A DNA stretch of 32,000 nucleotides from Clostridia bacterium (GCA_017934955.1 JAGBIO010000035.1:32057-64056); one strand, 5' to 3'. Counted from the stretch's first letter, positions 9,394-23,654 are shown. The notes: generated by a model not told the origin, from the letters alone. Translations and numbers: made by a program.

Positions 9394-9637
9394 GTTACTG
9401 CTCAGACTATATCCTCCTACAACGATGGTACAACCATTGTACGGACAGCATTTATGCTGTCCTGCTTTCTGCCTTTTCTGTGGACAGCATGGCAGTCAAA
9501 ACTTCCCAATCACTTCGTTCTTGGAGTTTCTTTGCACAGGACGTACAAGCCATTCACTTCGTTCATGGTGTTACGTCCGCGAATGCTGTCCCTACAGGGT
9601 TTGCGCCTTCTCTATAAATTTGATTCTGACCCGTAAC
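9394..9637. repeat. Repeat family 1 element carrying a nested family 3 module
   Basis: GTTACTGCTCAGACTATAT...GGACAGCAT-TT-ATGCTGTCC (9443-9462)...GGACAGCAT(9482-9490)[92-nt insert]ATGCTGTCC(9583-9591)...TCTATAAATTTGATTCTGACCCGTAAC. Confidence 0.88.
9491..9582 (-). repeat. Repeat family 3 module, copy B, inserted in the loop of a family 1 hairpin
   Basis: The reverse complement reads TCGCGGACGTAACACCAT[GAACGAAGTGA]ATGGCTTGTACGTCCTGTGCAAAGAAACTCCAA[GAACGAAGTGA]TTGGGAAGTTTTGACTGCC. Confidence 0.85.
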
Positions 9638-11537
9638 CACTTTCTACCTCTCTTTTGACACGGTTTCCTTTTTTCATCTCATCTGTCGGTGGTGTAAACT
9701 CACCATCTGGCGGTGTTTCTCTCATTCCTTTGTTTCCGCCAAAACCGCCTCCGCCAAAAGAACCTCTTCCGCTTTCGGCGCCTTCCTCATAAGCCTTTGT
9801 TATTCGACCGCTTATTGTAAATTCCATCACCTTGGTATCTCCTCGATAGAAGGAATATGTCTCACCTTCTTTTAATAATTCCGACGAAATTATCAAGGAC
9901 TGATACGCTTTTTTTGGTGAATAAGTTACCAAAATTCCACCTTCTGCATCTCGAATCGATGCTTCCCTTTCTGTCGCCTGTGAACCTGCTAAAAACAACA
10001 TGACAGAATTTTGTGAAGAACTTTCCGAAGGCGTTTGTGCCATTCCCGAACTTCCTGCTGCAATTAAAGTTCCGCCGGTAATTTCAAACACTCGATCATA
10101 ATCCAATGCCCCATTTCCGCTATTCGTCGGTCCATTCACCGTCACAAAACCACCCGACATATACGCCGAACCATTCACGTCAATTCCATCTCCCGACGCA
10201 TTAACGGAAATAATACCGCCACTAATCAATAATTTGTTTTCTCCTTCGGTATCGGTAAAACGATTCTGTCCCGGTCGTCCGTTAACAGAAGAAGCATCCA
10301 TACCGCCGGATACAATGATTCCGTCATCCGACGAAACCACTGTAATCTCTCCGCCGGAAATCGCAATGGAATTGCTCTCAATTCCTTCATAACTCTTATT
10401 TATCTGAATTTTCCCATCGGTAATCACAATCGCCGTATCCGCATGAATTCCGTCATCTCCCGAAGACGCAACAATCACGCCGTTATTGATAATCACCGTA
10501 TGATTACTATGAATCGAATCATCCAAAGAATCCAGTAAAAATGTTCCGCCGGTAATTAAAATGCTTTTTGATGCCTTTATCGCTTTATAGCTTCCTTCAT
10601 TCGTCTCTACCGCTTGTGTTTCTCTTCGTCCTGACATGCTATCCTGTTTCACAGCGGCTTTCTCACTGCCACCACCGGTTGTAACAGAAATTTCTCCTCC
10701 GGTAATAATTACATCGGTACTTGCTTGAATTCCATCGGATCCCGCTACAATCGAAATCTTTCCGCCATCAATTGCTATAAAACCTTTCTCTTCCGACTCG
10801 CTATTGGTAGATTTCATTCCGTCTCCGCCGGAAACGATTGAAATTGTCGCATCTTTTACCTGTAAATCATCTTTTCCCACAATTCCGTCATTCACTGCAT
10901 TTACCGAAATCTCTCCGCCGACAACTTTCAAAGAATCCTTTCCCTGAATTCCGTTATTGTACGTCGCATTTACCGCCAATTTTCCTGTACCGTTTATCGT
11001 AAAATCTGCTTTGCTGTAAATCGCCGCCGTCGTTTCATCACCTTCTGCTCTTGTTGCCGCATCGGTAATTATATTCGTCGTACCATCCGCTAACGAAAGA
11101 ATCACCTTTTCCGCCGACACAACTGAAATCGGTGCCGTTGAACCACTGCTAAGCGTTACTCCGTCAAGCAATAACGTCACAACATCATTTTCCTTCGCAT
11201 TTACAACAATCTGCCCATCTGTTAAACTGCCAATCACCCGATAAGTTCCTGCCGTTGTAATTTCCGCCGTATTTCCGTTCACTTTCACCTTACTGTCGGT
11301 AACCGATAGCGAAGTATTCTCCAAACGAATCTCGGTATATTCTTTTTCCTCCCAAGAAGAATCAAAGGTGTCATTCTCTTCAAAAGCAATCATATCCGTC
11401 GAAATAGAGGTATCTCCGTCAATCGACGCAAGCATATCTCCCGTAATATCTCCGGTTGCACTATCTTTCTTCTTACAAGCCGTCACAAAACAAATCAATA
11501 CCAGTAACGCCAAAATCAATCCCAATCTTTTTTTCAT
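9612..11537 (-). CDS. Lipoprotein with a parallel beta-helix-like repeat region (Cthe_2159-type carbohydrate-binding domain family)
   Basis: The signal peptide has a lipobox (LICFVTAC). Repetitive GG.I.V....DGI motifs are typical of right-handed beta-helices. ATG at 11537 is preferred because AGGTGA lies upstream. The last 8 codons and the stop lie inside the repeat at 9394-9637. Confidence 0.75.
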   Translation of the reverse strand: MKKRLGLILALLVLICFVTACKKKDSATGDITGDMLASIDGDTSISTDMIAFEENDTFDSSWEEKEYTEIRLENTSLSVTDSKVKVNGNTAEITTAGTYRVIGSLTDGQIVVNAKENDVVTLLLDGVTLSSGSTAPISVVSAEKVILSLADGTTNIITDAATRAEGDETTAAIYSKADFTINGTGKLAVNATYNNGIQGKDSLKVVGGEISVNAVNDGIVGKDDLQVKDATISIVSGGDGMKSTNSESEEKGFIAIDGGKISIVAGSDGIQASTDVIITGGEISVTTGGGSEKAAVKQDSMSGRRETQAVETNEGSYKAIKASKSILITGGTFLLDSLDDSIHSNHTVIINNGVIVASSGDDGIHADTAIVITDGKIQINKSYEGIESNSIAISGGEITVVSSDDGIIVSGGMDASSVNGRPGQNRFTDTEGENKLLISGGIISVNASGDGIDVNGSAYMSGGFVTVNGPTNSGNGALDYDRVFEITGGTLIAAGSSGMAQTPSESSSQNSVMLFLAGSQATEREASIRDAEGGILVTYSPKKAYQSLIISSELLKEGETYSFYRGDTKVMEFTISGRITKAYEEGAESGRGSFGGGGFGGNKGMRETPPDGEFTPPTDEMKKGNRVKREVESGYGSESNL

Positions 11538-11546
11538 TTTCTTCAC

Positions 11547-12215
11547 CTATAATTCCTCTCTTGAAGTCCGTTGTCTGCAACACATCACCGTCAAATTTCC
11601 ATTCCGACAACGAATTTCATCAATAAACTCTTTTTCCTTTTGTTCATCCAATAACTCAATTTCATAATAAAGTTCAAACATACTCCCCATGTTGGTTGTC
11701 TTCACCTTTAATAAAGTACTGCTCTTGGTAAATTTCTGAAAAATATCATCAAAAACATGCGTATAATTCAAATTTTCCGGAATCACAATTTTCAATTCCT
11801 TCTTACCAACCGTATCGCCGGCAAAATTTGTTTTCGCCAAAATCAATAAAACCACACAAATCAATAAAGTTACTACTGCTGCAAATCCGATATAACCTAC
11901 TCCACAAGCAAGCCCTACCGCCATCGCAAAAAATATGGAACAAATCTCCTTTGAACTTCCGGGAACCGAACGAAAGCGAACTAAGCTAAACGCACCCACA
12001 ACTGCCACACCGGTACCCAAATTTCCATTTACCATCATAATCACAATTCCTACCAATGCCGGAAGTAAAACCAAAGAAACCGCCATACTCTTCGTATGCT
12101 GCTCGCCGGAATTAATATACGTCAGCGAAATAATCAATCCTAACAACACCGCCGTACTGATACAAGCCAACACACCATATACATTCATTCCGTTTGTTAA
12201 CACATTATAAAACAT
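11547..12215 (-). CDS. DUF4956-type membrane protein
   Basis: It has about four N-terminal transmembrane segments plus a soluble C-terminal domain. Its position between the VTC-domain gene and the beta-helix lipoprotein matches a gene neighbourhood I recall for this family. The stop abuts the next gene. Confidence 0.7.
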   Translation of the reverse strand: MFYNVLTNGMNVYGVLACISTAVLLGLIISLTYINSGEQHTKSMAVSLVLLPALVGIVIMMVNGNLGTGVAVVGAFSLVRFRSVPGSSKEICSIFFAMAVGLACGVGYIGFAAVVTLLICVVLLILAKTNFAGDTVGKKELKIVIPENLNYTHVFDDIFQKFTKSSTLLKVKTTNMGSMFELYYEIELLDEQKEKEFIDEIRCRNGNLTVMCCRQRTSREEL

Positions 12216-12267: not shown

Positions 12268-12978
12268 TTATCCCACTACAGCCTCTGCTAAATCATTTGC
12301 ATATACTCTGCCATACTTTGAGAAAGAAATCGGATAAATCTGCAACTCGGATAAAATATGCACTAACCACAACGGCATCGCATCTCCCGACTTAATCTCC
12401 ATCAAATATTCTCCTTCCTTCAACAATGCTTCTCCATAATCTCCGTAAGCTAAATCCAAGTCATACTCCCGACTGCGAATATTCGAATCAAAAGTAATCC
12501 TTAAAGAATCTCCTTCTTTCTCTCGATACGCAATCCGATCATACGCCAAATACAACTTTTTCTCCGGTTGGTAATAATCTAAGAAATAGTCAATTTCCTT
12601 CAAAATCTGCGAATAACAAGCCGGTTTCTTTCTCGTCTCTAAATATTTTCCCGCTTCTTCTGCCGTCATTGCCACTCGTCGTTTATACACCGTACCGTAA
12701 CACTTCTTCTTCACTTCCAAAAAGACTGTCGAATCCTCCTTCGGAATCCCGTAACTACGTAACCGTAACTTTTCCTTGTAAGGAGGTTTATCTAATGAAT
12801 TTCGAATCAAATCATAATGTTCCGTATCAAAATAAATATTGCAAATCGTCGTCAATCCATAAGAATCCGTCTTCATATAAGGTTCAATCTCCTCCAAAAA
12901 CGCAAAATATTTGTCCTCACTCAAAAGATACTTCTTCTCAACCCTCTGAAAAATATAAGTCGTCTCAATTTTTTTCAT
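12268..12978 (-). CDS. VTC-domain (polyphosphate polymerase / CYTH-like tunnel) protein
   Basis: Motifs are characteristic of bacterial VTC-domain proteins: an N-terminal RVEKKYLL, ICNIYFDT, KLRLRSY, FLEVKKK and EIK. Confidence 0.8.
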   Translation of the reverse strand: MKKIETTYIFQRVEKKYLLSEDKYFAFLEEIEPYMKTDSYGLTTICNIYFDTEHYDLIRNSLDKPPYKEKLRLRSYGIPKEDSTVFLEVKKKCYGTVYKRRVAMTAEEAGKYLETRKKPACYSQILKEIDYFLDYYQPEKKLYLAYDRIAYREKEGDSLRITFDSNIRSREYDLDLAYGDYGEALLKEGEYLMEIKSGDAMPLWLVHILSELQIYPISFSKYGRVYANDLAEAVVG

Positions 12979-13053: not shown

Positions 13054-13084
13054 AAAAAAAGAGTACTAAACCGAAGTTTAATAC
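13054..13084 (-). terminator. Rho-independent terminator of the repeat-protein operon
   Basis: On the minus strand: GTATTAAAC-TTCG-GTTTAGTAC followed by TCTTTTTTT. The G-U wobble forms only on the minus-strand transcript. Confidence 0.75.
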
Positions 13085-13125
13085 CCTTACTTAAATCACT
13101 TTTCCTGCCTATTATCACAGAATTC

Positions 13126-13332
13126 TTATTCTGCTAAAAACTCTTTCATCAACCCAATCTGCTTTTCTGTCGTTTCTATTTTCTGCTGAACCCGCTCTAA
13201 TTGTGCAGTACAAAGTTGTAAAATCAGTTTCTTTGTATCAACGTCAATCTCGCTTAAGTCTATTTCCCCTTTCATATACCCGTTCAACAAATCTAACGCC
13301 TTTTGTTTTTGAACATTTATATTTTCTTTCAC
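13126..13332 (-). CDS. Small coiled-coil protein (68 aa), partner of the repeat protein
   Basis: A GTG start sits 8 nt after GGAGGT, and that Shine-Dalgarno overlaps the stop of the upstream gene. It shares a KGEIDL motif with the upstream protein's C-terminal domain. Confidence 0.6.
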   Translation of the reverse strand: MKENINVQKQKALDLLNGYMKGEIDLSEIDVDTKKLILQLCTAQLERVQQKIETTEKQIGLMKEFLAE

Positions 13333-13350
13333 TGTTTTTTACCTCCACTA

Positions 13351-15678
13351 CTAATGCGTTATGCCAAGTTCACGATTTAATGCCTCACGTTTTCTTCTCA
13401 ATGTTTTTTCCTCTGTTATAACAGCCTGTTTCATTTTTCCCGTAACAGTCAATTTCAAATCCTGCAATTCTGCCAATCGCTTTTCTAAAACAGCATAAGC
13501 TTCCCTTAACTGCTGAACTTTTTCCTCTATTTGCATGTCTAAATTGTCTGCTTGTTTTGCCATTTCCGCTTGTTTCCCCTTATAACCGAAATCAATAGAA
13601 TGTTGCTGTTTTGCTTGCTGAATCACATCTAAGTCAATTTCTCCCTTCACTACTTTTGATAACGTTCTATTCACATTTGTATAACAACATTGATCCTGCA
13701 AAACATATTGGACGTAATCTTTTGCCAAATCCACATCACCTTGTGAAATCTCCTTTGTCACTGTTTTTCCGGTCTTTAAATCCACATAACCGATCCGAGC
13801 ATCGTCGCCAAATTTATACGGGCTTCTGTAACCTTTTACTCGACTCACTTCTTGGTACATCCCGCGAATAAACTTTGTTAATGATTTTTCATTTTTACAA
13901 ACTCTCTGAATCATCTCAATTTTCATAACAATGAGATCAATTTGTCTCGCAAGGGATCCCTCTTCTATTGTAAATAAGCGCACGTATTGGGGAAATGTTA
14001 ACTGCTGACTTACTATCCCTTCTGCAAATTTTTCAAATAAATGTTGTTTTTCTTGGGTAATACAATCTCTTACTAAAACATCAAAGTTTACGGTTTTTTT
14101 CAAATATTCCTCTAAGGATAATTCTCCGGAAATCAATCTTTTCCGGACATTTCTAACCTTTGCCAAATACTTTTCCGAATTTTTCTGCAATGTATCTTTT
14201 AACTTCTCCTCATCTATTTTATCACCGCAAGTCTCGCGAACAATGTGTAAAATCGTTTCAAACTCCTCCTGCGTCATTCCTTTTCTTTCTGCAAATGCCT
14301 TTTTACTTTCACTTCCCTGCGTAAATTCTCTCACTAAAGCAATTCCAAAATACTCTTCACCGGAATTCTTTATAATTCCTTGACAATCAAAACCCAGTTC
14401 ATTAACTCCTTCTCTATTTAAGCCTTTTCTATCATATCCGTCTTTATTATAACCGGCTTGGTCATAGCCTTCTTCATCATACCCCATTTCGTTATATCCT
14501 TCTCGATTATAACCGGCTTGATTATATCCTTTATCATCATAGAATGTTCCATTTCTATGCTTTCCGCACGCATTAAATCCGTTTCGATCAAATCCGCTTC
14601 GATCATAACCCGCTTCATTATAACCGGTGAAATCATAACCTTCTTCATCATATTTTGTGCCATTTTTATGTAATCTCGTTTTATGAAAGCCCCTTTTGTT
14701 GTAACCTTCTCTATCATAGCCATACCGATTATATCCTTCTCTGTTATATCGATCTCTATCATAACCGGCTTTATTGTACCCCTCTTTATCATAACCATAC
14801 CTATCATATCCGGCTGCATTATAACCACTTTTATCATATCCGAATGCATTATATTTCGTTCCATTTTTATGCAGCCCATCTTTGTTAAAGCCTGCCGCAT
14901 CGTACCCACTTCTATCATAACCGGCTTTATTATAGCCCTCTTTATTATAACCGGCTTTATCATAGCCGAACTTATCATAACCTGCTCTGTTATAGCCTTC
15001 TTGGTCATATCCTAAAATATCATAACCTTCTTCATCGTATTTTGTTCCGTTTTTATGCAACCCATCTCTGTTAAATCCTTTTTTATTAAAACCTTTTTTA
15101 TTATAGCCTTCTTGATCATATCCAAAATAATCGAAACCATGAGAATCGTATCTTGTTCCGTTTTTATGAAGATTGCCTCGACTAAATCCGTTTCGATCAA
15201 ACCCTCTTTTATCATATCCGTATTTATCGTATCCGTCTCGATCATATCCGAACTTATTATATCCGTTTTTTTTGTAACCATCCCTATCAAAACCTTCTCT
15301 GTTAAAACCTGCCCGATTATATCCATCTCTATCGTATCCACTTAAATTATATCTTGTTCCATTTTTATAAATTCCTTCACTGTTAAAACCTTCTCGGTCA
15401 TACCCCTCTCGATCGTAACCTTTCCGATTATAACCCTTTTTATCATACCCTTCTCGGTCGTAACCCTCTCGATCATACCCTCTTTTGTTATACCCCTCTC
15501 GGTCATATCCTTCTCGATCATAGCCCTCTCGGTCATATCCTTCTCGATCATAACCATGCCGATCGTAGCCAAAACTATCATAACCTTCTTCATCATACCA
15601 TGTACCATTTTGATGTTTTCCTCTACGCCCGGTCGGTGTAATTCTAAATCCTCTTTCGTCATACTGTATCTCTTTCAT
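13351..15678 (-). CDS. 775-aa protein with a roughly 400-aa N-terminal array of G-[YF]-[DN]-x-x pentapeptide repeats, a unique C-terminal domain and a coiled-coil tail
   Basis: ATG at 15678 sits 7 nt after GGAGG. The sequence GYDREGYDREGYDREGYDREGYNKRGYDREGYD... is punctuated seven times by [HK][KQR]NGT.Y. The non-repetitive C-terminal half ends in a heptad-rich segment. Confidence 0.85.
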   Translation of the reverse strand: MKEIQYDERGFRITPTGRRGKHQNGTWYDEEGYDSFGYDRHGYDREGYDREGYDREGYDREGYNKRGYDREGYDREGYDKKGYNRKGYDREGYDREGFNSEGIYKNGTRYNLSGYDRDGYNRAGFNREGFDRDGYKKNGYNKFGYDRDGYDKYGYDKRGFDRNGFSRGNLHKNGTRYDSHGFDYFGYDQEGYNKKGFNKKGFNRDGLHKNGTKYDEEGYDILGYDQEGYNRAGYDKFGYDKAGYNKEGYNKAGYDRSGYDAAGFNKDGLHKNGTKYNAFGYDKSGYNAAGYDRYGYDKEGYNKAGYDRDRYNREGYNRYGYDREGYNKRGFHKTRLHKNGTKYDEEGYDFTGYNEAGYDRSGFDRNGFNACGKHRNGTFYDDKGYNQAGYNREGYNEMGYDEEGYDQAGYNKDGYDRKGLNREGVNELGFDCQGIIKNSGEEYFGIALVREFTQGSESKKAFAERKGMTQEEFETILHIVRETCGDKIDEEKLKDTLQKNSEKYLAKVRNVRKRLISGELSLEEYLKKTVNFDVLVRDCITQEKQHLFEKFAEGIVSQQLTFPQYVRLFTIEEGSLARQIDLIVMKIEMIQRVCKNEKSLTKFIRGMYQEVSRVKGYRSPYKFGDDARIGYVDLKTGKTVTKEISQGDVDLAKDYVQYVLQDQCCYTNVNRTLSKVVKGEIDLDVIQQAKQQHSIDFGYKGKQAEMAKQADNLDMQIEEKVQQLREAYAVLEKRLAELQDLKLTVTGKMKQAVITEEKTLRRKREALNRELGITH

Positions 15679-15693
15679 TTTTTCGCCTCCGCA

Positions 15694-15732
15694 AACATTA
15701 TGTAAATATTATACTACGTTTTACATAATGTT
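15694..15732. promoter_or_regulatory. Perfect 13-bp inverted repeat bracketing the -10 box (candidate operator)
   Basis: AACATTATGTAAA (15694-15706) and TTTACATAATGTT (15720-15732) flank the TATAAT element. Confidence 0.5.
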
Positions 15733-15736
15733 GCAA
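15708..15736 (-). promoter_or_regulatory. Sigma-A type promoter of the repeat-protein operon
   Basis: On the minus strand: TTGCAA (15736-15731), a 17-nt spacer, then TATAAT (15713-15708). Confidence 0.7.
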
Positions 15737-15862: not shown

Positions 15863-16831
15863 ATGAAACGGCTAAAAAACATATTTGCATTCATTCTGCT
15901 TACTTGCCTGTTTGTAAGCATATCGTTTGCGGAAAGTACTCTCAAAATAAAAGTGAATAATAAATACATCCAAACGGACGCCGATCCGTTTATCACAAAC
16001 GGAACAACTTACGTTCCGATTCGCTTCATCAGTGAAGGACTCAATATCCAAAACATAGCGTGGGATAGTAACTCCAAAACGGTTACCCTAAAAAGCGGCT
16101 CAGACACTTTAAGAATCTTGATCAATAAGAATTATGCTTATAAAAACGGTATTCTTATTACCGTACCCAATCCGGCAATCCTGGTAAACGGACGAACCTT
16201 CGTACCGTTACGATTCGTCTCGGAAAACTTTGATGCGGATGTAGAATGGCAAGAAAGCACCGACACTGTAATCATTACAACAGCTTCCGCCGCGCCGCCT
16301 TCTTCCGGTTCAGGTTCCTCCTCTTCCGGCTCAGGTTCCTCCTCTTCCGGTTCAGGTTCTTCCTCCGGCTCAAGCTCTTCCTCCGGTTCAGGTTCTTCCT
16401 CCGGCTCAAGTTCTCCTTCCACGCCAATCGCACCTTCCGGTTCTAACTCAGACCTCTATACAGACTATAACGATGCGGTATACTGGCTATCCCGCATCAT
16501 TGAAGCAGAAGCTGCCGGAGAATCCTTAAAGGGAAAAGTAGCCGTCGGAGAAGTTATCTTAAACCGGGTAAGAAGTGACGAATTTCCGAACACCATCTGG
16601 ACTGTTATCTTTGACACCAAATTCGGCATCCAATTCGAACCGGTCGCTAATGGAAGCATCTATAACACACCATCCGCCGAAAGTATCAAAGCCGCAAAAA
16701 TAGCATTAGACGGATCTAATTATGTTGGTAAATGTTTATACTTCTTAAATCCAAGAATCGCCCAAAGCAACTGGATTTCCAAAAATCGTGTATATTATAC
16801 AACCATCGGAAATCATGATTTTTATCTTTAA
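15863..16831 (+). CDS. Secreted cell-wall hydrolase: copper-amine-oxidase-N-like stalk domain, Ser/Gly linker and SleB/CwlJ (Hydrolase_2) domain
   Basis: It has a signal peptide (ILLTCLFVSISFA). GTTYVPIRFISEGL and GRTFVPLRFVSENF are Cu_amine_oxidN1-like. A 40+ aa SG-rich linker follows. The C-terminus reads YWLSRIIEAEAAGE...GEVILNRV...QFEP, as in SleB. Confidence 0.85.
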   Translation: MKRLKNIFAFILLTCLFVSISFAESTLKIKVNNKYIQTDADPFITNGTTYVPIRFISEGLNIQNIAWDSNSKTVTLKSGSDTLRILINKNYAYKNGILITVPNPAILVNGRTFVPLRFVSENFDADVEWQESTDTVIITTASAAPPSSGSGSSSSGSGSSSSGSGSSSGSSSSSGSGSSSGSSSPSTPIAPSGSNSDLYTDYNDAVYWLSRIIEAEAAGESLKGKVAVGEVILNRVRSDEFPNTIWTVIFDTKFGIQFEPVANGSIYNTPSAESIKAAKIALDGSNYVGKCLYFLNPRIAQSNWISKNRVYYTTIGNHDFYL

Positions 16832-22130: not shown

Positions 22131-23654
22131 TTATTTAATCTCGGTCAAATTCGCATAAGTCGGTTCTATTTCTTTTCGCATCTCATCATAATTTCCCAAC
22201 AACTTTACAAAATTCTTTACCACGGTAGCATCAAACTGCGCTCCACTACCCTTTTCCAACTGTTCAATCGCCTGTGACAACTCCATTTTGCTCCTATATA
22301 CACGATCGGAAGTCATCGCATCAAATGCATCCGCAACCGAAATAATTCTCGCAAGAGGAGGAATTTCGTCTCCCTTTAAGCCATGCGGATAACCTCTTCC
22401 GTCGATTCTCTCATGATGATACTCTACCAACGGCACAATATCCTTAAACATTGACATTGCGGACAAAATGTTGGCACCTTTTAACGGATGTTTCTTAATT
22501 TCGTTATATTCGAAATCATCCAACTTCGCATTTTTTAGTAAAATATCGTCATTCGTTCCAATTTTTCCGATATCATGGAAAATTCCGCCGATTTTCAGTT
22601 TTTCCAAATCCGCCTCGCTCAATCCCATTTCTTCGCCGATTTTTACGGCATAATACGCAACACGATCGGAATGTCCCCTTGTATAATAATCCTTTGCATC
22701 AACCGTTAAGCGCAACGTTTCAATCGCATCCATATAGCGTTTTTTCAGTTCCGCATACGTCTCTACCAACTGTTCATTCTTCACATTTACCAAAGAATGC
22801 AAATGAGCATTATTAATTGCCGCCGCTGCCTGCTTTGCATAAATTTCAAGCAATTTTAACCCATTCATATAATTCGTACTCTCTATGTAGATCACACCGA
22901 TACTCTGTGCATTTCCCACATTTAGCGGAATAATTACGCCGGTGTTGCTTGGAATTGTCATATTGGTATTTCTCGCACAACCCAACTCTGTCAAAAAATC
23001 CGGCGACATAGAAGTCATAAAACTCGTAATATCGCAATCGTATTTCCCGATTCCTCTTAAAATACTCTTCTTCTCCTGCTGAAAATCATTATTAATATCA
23101 TCCGCTAAAATAAACGCATTCGAGCTGTTTACCAACGGCATCAACCGCGATAAAATTTCTTCCAAAATACTATCAATCGGCTGAAGCTGATAAATCTTCG
23201 GAACTGCCTCAATAATGTTATTCAGACCTTCACTGAATTTCGCAATCGTTCTCTTTTGAGCGATAGACTTAATCGCCGACTCAATCAATAAAATCAGCTG
23301 ATCAAACTTATCGCTCTTTTCACAATAACACTGAATATCAAAATTCTCCATCGCCTCAAGCGGTGGCGCTAAATCTTTATGACCGGTCAACAGCAGAATA
23401 TATAAATCGTCATTAAATTCACGGATTCTTTCTACTACTTCATCTCCGTTAATCGGATCCATAATATAATCCAAGATCATCAAATCAAAATGATCTTTTT
23501 TTACCGCTTCAATAGCATCCAACGGATTGGTTACACCCACATACTCATAATTTTTTCTACGCAAAATAATGGATATGGAATCCAAAACTCCAATATCGTC
23601 GTCAACCACAATCACTTTATATGTATCCTCACTGCGATTGCTACCTCTTCTCAT
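22131..23654 (-). CDS. Response regulator with REC, a middle sensory (GAF-like) region and an HD-GYP phosphodiesterase domain
   Basis: REC signature: VIVVDDD...LMILDY. HD-GYP signature: GHSDRV, FHDIGK, HHERIDGRGYP. No cognate kinase is adjacent. Confidence 0.9.
   Translation of the reverse strand: MRRGSNRSEDTYKVIVVDDDIGVLDSISIILRRKNYEYVGVTNPLDAIEAVKKDHFDLMILDYIMDPINGDEVVERIREFNDDLYILLLTGHKDLAPPLEAMENFDIQCYCEKSDKFDQLILLIESAIKSIAQKRTIAKFSEGLNNIIEAVPKIYQLQPIDSILEEILSRLMPLVNSSNAFILADDINNDFQQEKKSILRGIGKYDCDITSFMTSMSPDFLTELGCARNTNMTIPSNTGVIIPLNVGNAQSIGVIYIESTNYMNGLKLLEIYAKQAAAAINNAHLHSLVNVKNEQLVETYAELKKRYMDAIETLRLTVDAKDYYTRGHSDRVAYYAVKIGEEMGLSEADLEKLKIGGIFHDIGKIGTNDDILLKNAKLDDFEYNEIKKHPLKGANILSAMSMFKDIVPLVEYHHERIDGRGYPHGLKGDEIPPLARIISVADAFDAMTSDRVYRSKMELSQAIEQLEKGSGAQFDATVVKNFVKLLGNYDEMRKEIEPTYANLTEIK

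Follow-up and report, generated by a model that had tools for sequence, protein, structure and literature searches.

The question raised by this locus is what a bacterial protein built largely from tandem G-[YF]-[DN]-x-x units might do for its cell, and what the small gene directly behind it contributes. Both genes lie on the reverse strand of a stretch of 32,000 nucleotides (nt) from a Clostridia bacterium (GCA_017934955.1, JAGBIO010000035.1:32057-64056), which we call the window and number from its first letter; with stop codons included, the large gene occupies 13351..15678 and the small one 13126..13332, and they encode 775 and 68 residues, respectively. We suggest that this operon specifies a cytoplasmic two-protein complex, in which the large subunit would be an ordered rod of variable length and in which a C-terminal domain, a helical stalk and the small partner would confer the specific function. 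We rate the chance that this explanation is right at slightly below even, and the uncertainty in it lies mostly in function and partner binding, not in anatomy.

The two-gene operon is genuine, with a promoter-like and a terminator-like site. A Shine-Dalgarno sequence, GGAGG (15686..15690), stands 7 nt before the ATG of the large gene, and the stop codon of that gene (13351-13353) is followed by a second TAG. Eighteen nucleotides separate the large gene from the small one, which starts at GTG and has a predicted helical product; this gap holds a second GGAGG (13342..13346), which starts 5 nt past the large-gene stop and lies 9 nt before the GTG. Because of this junction, we consider the two genes to be tightly linked. 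A first-pass annotation, made by a model from the sequence alone, had described the small gene's Shine-Dalgarno sequence as overlapping the upstream stop, which it does not, and had called the large protein giant, a word that its 775 residues hardly justify. The same annotation credited the operon with its own promoter and terminator. Sequences that resemble both are present: a sigma-70-type promoter-like site, TTGCAA-17 nt-TATAAT, at 15708..15736, which agrees with the consensus at 10 of 12 positions, and a hairpin at 13059..13088 with 13 pairs and a 4-nt loop, followed by a run of T (both on the operon's strand). Promoter-like sites are, however, no commoner in this region than in shuffled sequence (8 found, 10.5 expected), so that the first is suggestive at most, and the hairpin contains just 3 G-C pairs.

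Both genes recur outside the window. A metagenome contig in the European Nucleotide Archive (ENA) shows 0 differences from it across the 2,553 nt that hold them, and the 775-residue gene is called there too. The exact sequence of the 68-residue protein occurs in an NCBI metagenome-assembled genome (MAG) labelled 'Clostridia bacterium' and on five contigs. Despite the gene call on the ENA contig, the 775-residue sequence is absent from the protein collection by exact look-up and from the output of our homology search; the protein index may under-represent proteins as repetitive as this one.

The repeat array fills residues 21-433 of the large protein (14380..15618, reverse strand) and holds 63 G-[YF]-[DN]-type units, spanning residues 32 to 433, in seven blocks. 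Each block is introduced by an 11-residue opener, h-[HY]-[KRQ]-N-G-T-x-Y-[DN]-x-x, and the seven copies begin at residues 21 (KHQNGTWYDEE), 103 (IYKNGTRYNLS), 170 (LHKNGTRYDSH), 207 (LHKNGTKYDEE), 269 (LHKNGTKYNAF), 336 (LHKNGTKYDEE) and 373 (KHRNGTFYDDK), that is, at spacings of 82, 67, 37, 62, 67 and 37. Successive units are exactly 5 residues apart in 54 of 62 cases, and the six spacings of 17 coincide with openers. Identity autocorrelation of the array is 0.46 at a lag of 5 and 0.40 at a lag of 10; a two-unit or four-unit periodicity within arrays was looked for and not seen. Among the 60 units tabulated, position 1 is Gly throughout, position 2 is Tyr (49) or Phe (11), position 3 is Asp (36) or Asn (23), position 4 is Arg or Lys in 44, and position 5 is chiefly Glu, Ala or Asp. 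The array as a whole is 19% Gly, 20% Tyr and Phe, 22% Asp and Asn and 25% Lys, Arg and Glu; Arg and Lys together make up 18%, and the net charge is close to zero (73 Lys and Arg, 76 Asp and Glu). We found no signal peptide or membrane segment in the large protein, the highest 19-residue Kyte-Doolittle mean being 0.8. One idea about the openers was dropped: that their N-G-T is an N-glycosylation sequon, given that relatives carry T-G-T there.

Most of this had been anticipated by the first-pass annotation, which placed an array of several dozen units at about residues 28-425, divided it into about seven super-repeats with an NGT-type opener, gave its composition as essentially Gly, an aromatic residue, Asp or Asn, and Lys, Arg or Glu, and saw no signal peptide; all four points stand. 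So does its observation that the repeat leaves alternative frames open on both strands, which the list of open reading frames (ORFs) shows for the interior of the array. The DNA that underlies the repeat is diverged. Tandem Repeats Finder reports 65-88% matches between the DNA repeats, and nine identical GYDRE units are encoded by 8 different 15-mers, with all four Gly codons in use. We therefore agree with the earlier proposal that the repeat is maintained by selection at the level of the protein and not by recent slippage. The DNA units most alike lie at nt 15496-15555, close to the stretch (15481-15550) for which near-identical units had been reported.

Register is strict well beyond the window. 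In the 120 best homologues, which supply approximately 5,700 unit pairs, 82% of the spacings measure exactly 5 residues, and multiples of 5 account for 93%. The structure prediction that the first-pass annotation had proposed for the repeat was run with AlphaFold2 on residues 160-350 with a 35-sequence alignment, and it is confident: the best predicted local distance difference test score (pLDDT) is 94.5, all five models reach at least 92.3, the predicted template modelling score is 0.63, and in the repeat model no residue falls below a pLDDT of 70. DSSP assigns almost no helix or strand to this model, finding isolated bridges at each opener that run from the Phe of the preceding unit to the opener His. 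Foldseek returned 0 matches to it in the PDB at E up to 10.

A third line of evidence comes from covariation among homologues, for which we assembled 231 uninterrupted runs comprising 3,111 units from the 120 best homologues (P0001-P0120). When position 5 of unit i is acidic, position 4 of unit i+3 tends to be Lys or Arg (r = 0.21, bootstrap 95% interval 0.16-0.26), and a coupling to that position is likewise seen for Asp, as opposed to Asn, at position 3 of unit i (r = 0.20, 0.15-0.25). For both couplings, the remaining lags from -6 to +6 lie within 0.08 of zero, and the value at lag -3 is 0.00. Tandem duplication fails to explain such a pattern, because of that null value at lag -3: a by-product of three-unit duplication would be expected to be symmetric and no greater than the lag-0 value of 0.05. 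We therefore read the coupling as spatial contact, which suggests that units three apart touch one another and that the array makes one turn in about 15 residues.

The remainder of the large protein is of a different kind. Residues 434-682 (13633..14379, reverse strand) are predicted, from a 38-sequence alignment and AlphaFold2, to form a globular all-alpha domain with one beta-hairpin, and residues 683-771 (13366..13632) a single long helix, a candidate coiled-coil stalk that corresponds to residues 251-339 of the model. That model, made for the C-terminal 343 residues, has a pLDDT of 92 and contains 15 helices, the hairpin and the terminal helix of 89 residues. A search with residues 433-775 found 46 cluster representatives among 1.84 billion proteins; by phmmer, the domain matches its best full-length relative, P0010, at E = 7.5e-46 (33% identity) and 29 cluster representatives at E of 1e-10 or below. 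Altogether 58 proteins share the domain, most of them with the same architecture. In the 38-sequence alignment (A1), Cys665, which is Cys233 of the domain, is invariant, and G518, Y565, G630, A652, Y655 and G679 are nearly so; the motifs Y-x-x-P-Y and K-G-E-I stand out, and the helical tail beyond them is poorly conserved and variable in length. An alignable C-terminal domain of approximately 260 residues, the invariant Cys and the two motifs define the family, and the window protein has them all.

The N-termini of these relatives are mostly G[YF][DN]xx arrays, some are DUF4116-like repeats that take the place of the pentapeptide array (P0128, P0139, P0140, P0146, P0154 and P0160; the one locus of this type that was inspected is L011), and some have no repeats. 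One short entry of the last kind, P0124, begins at a contig end and is possibly a truncated gene call. Since the N-termini vary among carriers, the C-terminal domain is the constant part of the gene family, and the family-defining unit is this domain together with the downstream partner gene.

No fold or function for the domain came from comparison with known proteins. Foldseek, run with the C-terminal model against the PDB and BFVD, reached an E of 0.25 at best, with TM scores below 0.2, values that the 89-residue helix may depress insofar as they are global, and Pfam named no family common to more than one member of alignment A1. A profile search of the PDB returned weak local matches to EF-hand proteins (CIB3, E = 0.023; GCAP1, E = 0.23). 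The domain's recurring G-E-I-x-x-x-E/D does resemble the second half of an EF loop, and the match covers the loop and the exiting helix, but the family consensus has Leu, Ala and Thr at the Ca2+-ligand positions 1, 3 and 12 of the loop, and neither Pfam nor Foldseek supplied an EF-hand match, so an EF-hand identity was rejected. In its first three helices, the domain has residues arranged as in a helix-turn-helix, S-x-x-x-F-A-x-x-x-G-h-S/T. The third of these helices is acidic and the idea has no backing from a family match, and we do not regard a helix-turn-helix as established on this pattern. The domain was not found in the phage search. A scan of a genome collection with patterns derived from the window found nothing, the alignment being too diverse for pattern design, and one with a closer sub-alignment found three uncultured Clostridia MAGs only. 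All named genomes in which the family occurs are likewise uncultured Clostridia MAGs.

The small gene has relatives as well. We inspected ten related loci for a downstream partner gene, and in seven of them (L003, L005, L006, L008, L009, L012 and L013) an alignable partner lies directly downstream, 14-29 nt past the large gene or overlapping it. In these partners and in the small protein of the window alike, a helical tail comes after the motif L-x-x-G-E-I-x-I-S-x-L-[TS]-D-x-E-L-x-x-x-I-x-L-Y-x-x-Q-I-E. The partners are longer, at 106-120 residues, and have at their start a stretch rich in basic and aromatic residues, N-L-P-x(6)-F-x-K-I-[KR]-x-x-F-x-x-F, that looks amphipathic; in a family whose members typically have about 110-120 residues, the 68-residue protein of the window is the short form. 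The sequence KGEIDL, which had been noted as common to the two products of the operon, is indeed present in both, at residue 678 of the large protein and residue 21 of the small one. As a sign of homology it fails, because the profiles of the partner family and of the large protein's C-terminal domain, when compared, matched over 12 columns at E = 0.31, which is not significant; homology between the small and large proteins on this ground was accordingly rejected.

How far the repeat itself extends is a separate matter. It is not peculiar to this gene, a point that the first-pass annotation had missed. A homology search of 5.8 billion proteins, with 8,000 candidates scored, gave more than 1,090 matches to the large protein among those candidates, nearly all of them through the repeat alone. 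UvrD-like helicase domains are present in approximately 46 of the 120 best matches; the other domains fused to the repeat include VWA with OmpA, DZANK zinc ribbons, RNase_T, protein kinases (Pkinase), TrbI, DUF6273, HopA1, Sel1 with DUF1883 and a fungal HET domain. Source names, where given, are Lachnospiraceae, Saccharibacteria, Chloroflexia, Bacteroidota, Nocardia and Enorma. The 120 best homologues have between 23 and 76 strict units each, the median being 50. To judge by these matches, the repeat is a widespread module: in bacteria, and in one fungal protein at least, it recurs ahead of many unrelated domains.

Two kinds of carrier may be described here for their own sake. The commonest, of the P0008 type, are UvrD-like helicases about 1,300 residues long, whose array, some 400 residues in length, leads into a short CarD/TRCF-RID-like (Tudor-like) segment and, after it, the helicase core. 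The other, a hypothetical protein, is encoded on the mobilizable plasmid pGOR1 of Gordonia sp. YC-JH1 (L015:1498-2271) and joins approximately 16 G[YFW]Dxx units to a C-terminal multi-span membrane domain; its gene lies in a transfer-gene region, flanked by a transglycosylase gene and a gene for a coupling-type protein with a TraM-recognition domain, and six other Gordonia plasmids also yield similar matches.

The repeat has no name in the libraries consulted. Pfam, NCBIfam, PHROGs and PADLOC were searched with the large protein, with each of its halves and with the small protein, and nothing rose above threshold for either protein; the classical pentapeptide-repeat models of Pfam in particular matched neither the whole large protein at E up to 1 nor the array alone at E up to 10. 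The separate Pfam searches of array and C-terminal domain that had been proposed earlier thus name no family for either, and the earlier statement that the repeat is unassigned and distinct from both the classical A(D/N)LXX pentapeptide repeat and MORN repeats can be extended to YD repeats. Full-text literature searches on repeat strings, on 'GYD' motifs and on PF25296 brought up nothing relevant.

The nearest curated family is PF25296, the decapeptide repeat of DotG/IcmE. The window array scores 7.6 bits on it (E = 4.7, cut-off 45), compared with 306.5 bits for a DotG repeat segment used as a positive control, and some pentapeptide homologues score 25-32 bits. The repeat part of the NCBIfam model for DotG/IcmE, NF033900, gives 28.8 bits against a cut-off of 750. 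A sequence search of the PDB retrieved DotG chains (E = 0.054) along with a designed Kelch protein, matches that we judged to be compositional or local. The DotG decapeptide has been described as [KR]-x-A-G-[FY]-[STND]-x-x-x-[LI], with low-confidence structure predictions, and the repeat region, which the authors could not model, was proposed to form a 'collar' (bioRxiv 10.1101/2023.03.22.533729). Both repeats have a G-[FY]-[DN/ST] core and form long tandem arrays of variable copy number. Moreover, two of our matches (P0022 and P0117) carry an N-terminal membrane segment, long G[YF][DN]xx arrays with Cys-rich interruptions and then a TrbI domain (54.8 bits for P0117, cut-off 35), so that a pentapeptide array stands before the VirB10/TrbI domain where DotG has decapeptides. 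The window repeat differs, however, in having a period of 5 and not 10 and in lacking the Ala and the Leu/Ile of the decapeptide, of whose motif it has G-[FY]-[DN] alone; the window protein has neither a membrane segment nor a TrbI match; and AlphaFold2 is confident on its repeat, in contrast to what is reported for DotG. In our opinion the two repeats are clearly related in kind and probably also related by distant descent.

Classical pentapeptide repeats (PF00805, PF13599 and PF13576) follow the pattern [STAV][DN][LF][STR][G] and fold as a right-handed quadrilateral beta-helix with 4 units, or 20 residues, per coil. Like the window repeat, they are tandem five-residue units that combine an Asp or Asn with a large hydrophobic residue and a position taken by Gly or a small residue; an elongated repetitive fold is predicted here as well. 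The order of residues is different, the aromatic preceding Asp/Asn in the window and Asp/Asn preceding Leu/Phe in the classical repeat; the coupling here has a lag of three units, as against four units per coil; and Foldseek found nothing in the PDB for our model although pentapeptide-repeat structures are deposited there. One apparent tie proved to be an artefact: a tblastn match to the pentapeptide-repeat gene of Bordetella phage vB_BaM-IFTN6 (L014:601-861) lies on the antisense strand, from which it follows that antisense A(D/N)LXX repeats can mimic G-[YF]-[DN]-x-x in translated searches. The YD repeats of Rhs proteins and teneurins and the MORN repeats consist of beta-hairpin units of approximately 20-23 residues. 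They are tandem repeats rich in Gly and aromatic residues, as is ours, and the openers of the window array contain the turn motif Y-D-x-x-G, but the window unit has 5 residues, there is no Pfam match, and the model is almost without strands.

With these comparisons in hand, the two-protein complex proposed at the outset can be given a form. Residues 1-433 would make up an ordered, elongated array, each unit supplying one Gly that never varies, one aromatic residue (Tyr or Phe) that stacks and one Asp or Asn, and presenting its variable positions (mostly Lys or Arg, then Asp, Glu or Ala) on the outside. The units would stack with about three, or 15 residues, to the turn; the length of the rod would be set by the number of units, and the rod could act as a spacer, as a multivalent surface, or as both. 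The all-alpha C-terminal domain of about 250 residues, together with the long helix, would bind the small helical protein encoded downstream. In most relatives, the basic and aromatic amphipathic segment at the N-terminus of the partner may anchor the complex, an element absent from the 68-residue version in the window. Our best guess is that the complex serves as a structural scaffold. Its presumed location in the cytoplasm is supported by the large protein, since that protein has no hydrophobic segment.

Several observations weigh against this proposal. On the side of the partner, the window protein lacks the N-terminal segment of about 45 residues found in the others; two of the ten loci (L002 and L010) have different small ORFs downstream, and a third (L011, of the DUF4116 type) has none, leaving these three with no alignable partner; and the binding of small to large protein is deduced from gene adjacency alone. 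As for the promoter-like and terminator-like sites, they are no more than matches to a consensus. On the side of the rod, AlphaFold2 is prone to over-confidence on idealised repeats, the repeat alignment is ambiguous in register, and the model, according to DSSP, is nearly devoid of regular secondary structure. The coupling between units i and i+3 was measured on homologues and is invisible in the window protein, because position 4 of the latter is nearly always Lys or Arg. Finally, no annotated relative supplies a function.

A more ambitious version of the scaffold proposal can be framed, and we offer it as a speculation that probably claims too much. In this version, G-[YF]-[DN]-x-x arrays would constitute an undescribed class of solenoid, with three units per turn, an aromatic ladder and salt bridges between units i and i+3, and without a counterpart in the PDB; the class would provide a general, adjustable rod in more than 1,000 proteins, among them helicases, kinases, VirB10/DotG-like proteins and fungal HET proteins; the decapeptide of the DotG 'collar' would be a derived, two-unit version of it; and the present operon would be a new two-protein cytoplasmic scaffold.

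Repeats that combine aromatic residues, Asp or Asn and Gly are typical of carbohydrate-binding and Ca2+-binding proteins. The array might accordingly bind a ligand, be it a glycan or peptidoglycan, a nucleic acid, polyphosphate or Ca2+, and so target the domains to which it is fused, much as choline-binding, glucan-binding and RTX repeats do. The charged residues at the variable positions 4 and 5, which are predicted to be exposed, would suit such a role, as would the fusions to envelope proteins (OmpA with VWA, TrbI) and to enzymes of nucleic acids (UvrD-like helicases, RNase_T). We nevertheless consider it unlikely. No similarity to CW_binding, RTX, YD or other binding-repeat families was detected at E up to 1, and the module is found both in proteins of periplasmic topology and in proteins without an export signal, which makes a single ligand improbable; polyphosphate is not favoured by the neighbouring VTC and DUF4956 genes, which are not conserved beside relatives.

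It is also conceivable, though we think it distinctly improbable, that the array is an intrinsically disordered sticker-spacer polymer, with Tyr and Arg or Lys as the stickers, which drives the formation of a condensate or fibre as the C-terminal domain and coiled coil oligomerise. The composition, with its Gly (19%), Tyr and Phe (20%), Arg and Lys (18%) and net charge near zero, resembles that of phase-separating low-complexity domains, the near absence of helix and strand from the model would be in keeping with disorder, and the related DotG repeats are reported to be predicted with low confidence (bioRxiv 10.1101/2023.03.22.533729). Yet the window repeat is modelled at a pLDDT of 94.5 with no residue under 70; the unit spacings, 82% of which are 5 and 93% multiples of 5, are not what freely variable spacers would lead one to expect; Gly and Asp/Asn are invariant at set positions; and a charge coupling that runs in one direction, from i to i+3, implies a fixed geometry. 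Given the prediction, the strict register and the coupling, an ordered array is favoured over a disordered one. Of the two roles suggested in the first-pass annotation, then, it is the solenoid scaffold that gains from these results, and the condensate-forming sticker-spacer goes unsupported.

That the large gene is a spurious or decaying low-complexity ORF without function might be argued from the several frames open over the repeat and from the absence of the exact 775-residue sequence from the protein collection, but the notion is refuted, as far as sequence can refute it, by the second metagenome contig with both genes unchanged over 2,553 nt and the large one called, by the 58 proteins that share the C-terminal domain, mostly in the same architecture, by the synonymous variation beneath identical peptide units, by two confident structure predictions (pLDDT 94.5 and 92) and by properly spaced GGAGG ribosome-binding sites before both genes.

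The surroundings of the operon are those of an ordinary chromosome, with housekeeping genes around it; the genes recognised in the window include a gyrB/parE-like gene and genes for a hibernation factor, an NAD synthase, an RluA-type pseudouridine synthase and a SleB-like cell-wall hydrolase, as well as a VTC-DUF4956-Cthe_2159 group. This last group lies directly downstream of the operon on the same, reverse strand, with genes for a VTC domain (12268-12978), DUF4956 (11547-12215) and a Cthe_2159 carbohydrate-binding domain (9612-11546). On the other side, on the forward strand, is the SleB-type hydrolase, which has a copper-amine-oxidase N-terminal domain (15863-16831). Beside the relatives of the large gene, none of the operon's neighbours recurs, the VTC/DUF4956 and SleB-like genes included, and a functional link to these genes was dropped for that reason. 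Searches with PHROGs and PADLOC and the phage search gave no phage or defence-system signal. Two further features may be recorded: the SleB-type hydrolase has a Ser/Gly linker of about 45 residues (approximately 16290-16430) that gives rise to spurious frames on both strands (16138-16422, 16246-16446 and 16275-16433), and a response regulator at 22131-23654 on the reverse strand combines receiver, DUF3369 and HD_5/HD domains in the layout of an HD-GYP-type phosphodiesterase.

What the locus means depends in large part on whether the array is ordered. Neither the curated libraries nor the literature searched contain the repeat, and the sequence comparisons made above place it with none of the DotG, classical pentapeptide, YD and MORN repeats. 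If the array is ordered and its geometry new, it would enlarge by one class the few solenoid architectures now known, give curators a family that can be defined, with more than 1,000 proteins that each have a half now unannotated, and provide a model, soluble and tractable, for the DotG/IcmE repeat region of the Legionella type IV secretion system. The coupling of unit i to i+3 supplies a concrete and testable geometry for such a structure, and the repeat may bear on the DotG collar. Were the array disordered instead, it would still be a widespread low-complexity module. The gene pair, for its part, is a rare conserved two-gene cassette of gut Clostridia, and its C-terminal fold, confidently predicted and unmatched, is a target for structural genomics. 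In an ordered array, unit numbers that vary from 23 to 76 among the best matches would make the repeat a candidate molecular ruler and, possibly, a building block for protein design.

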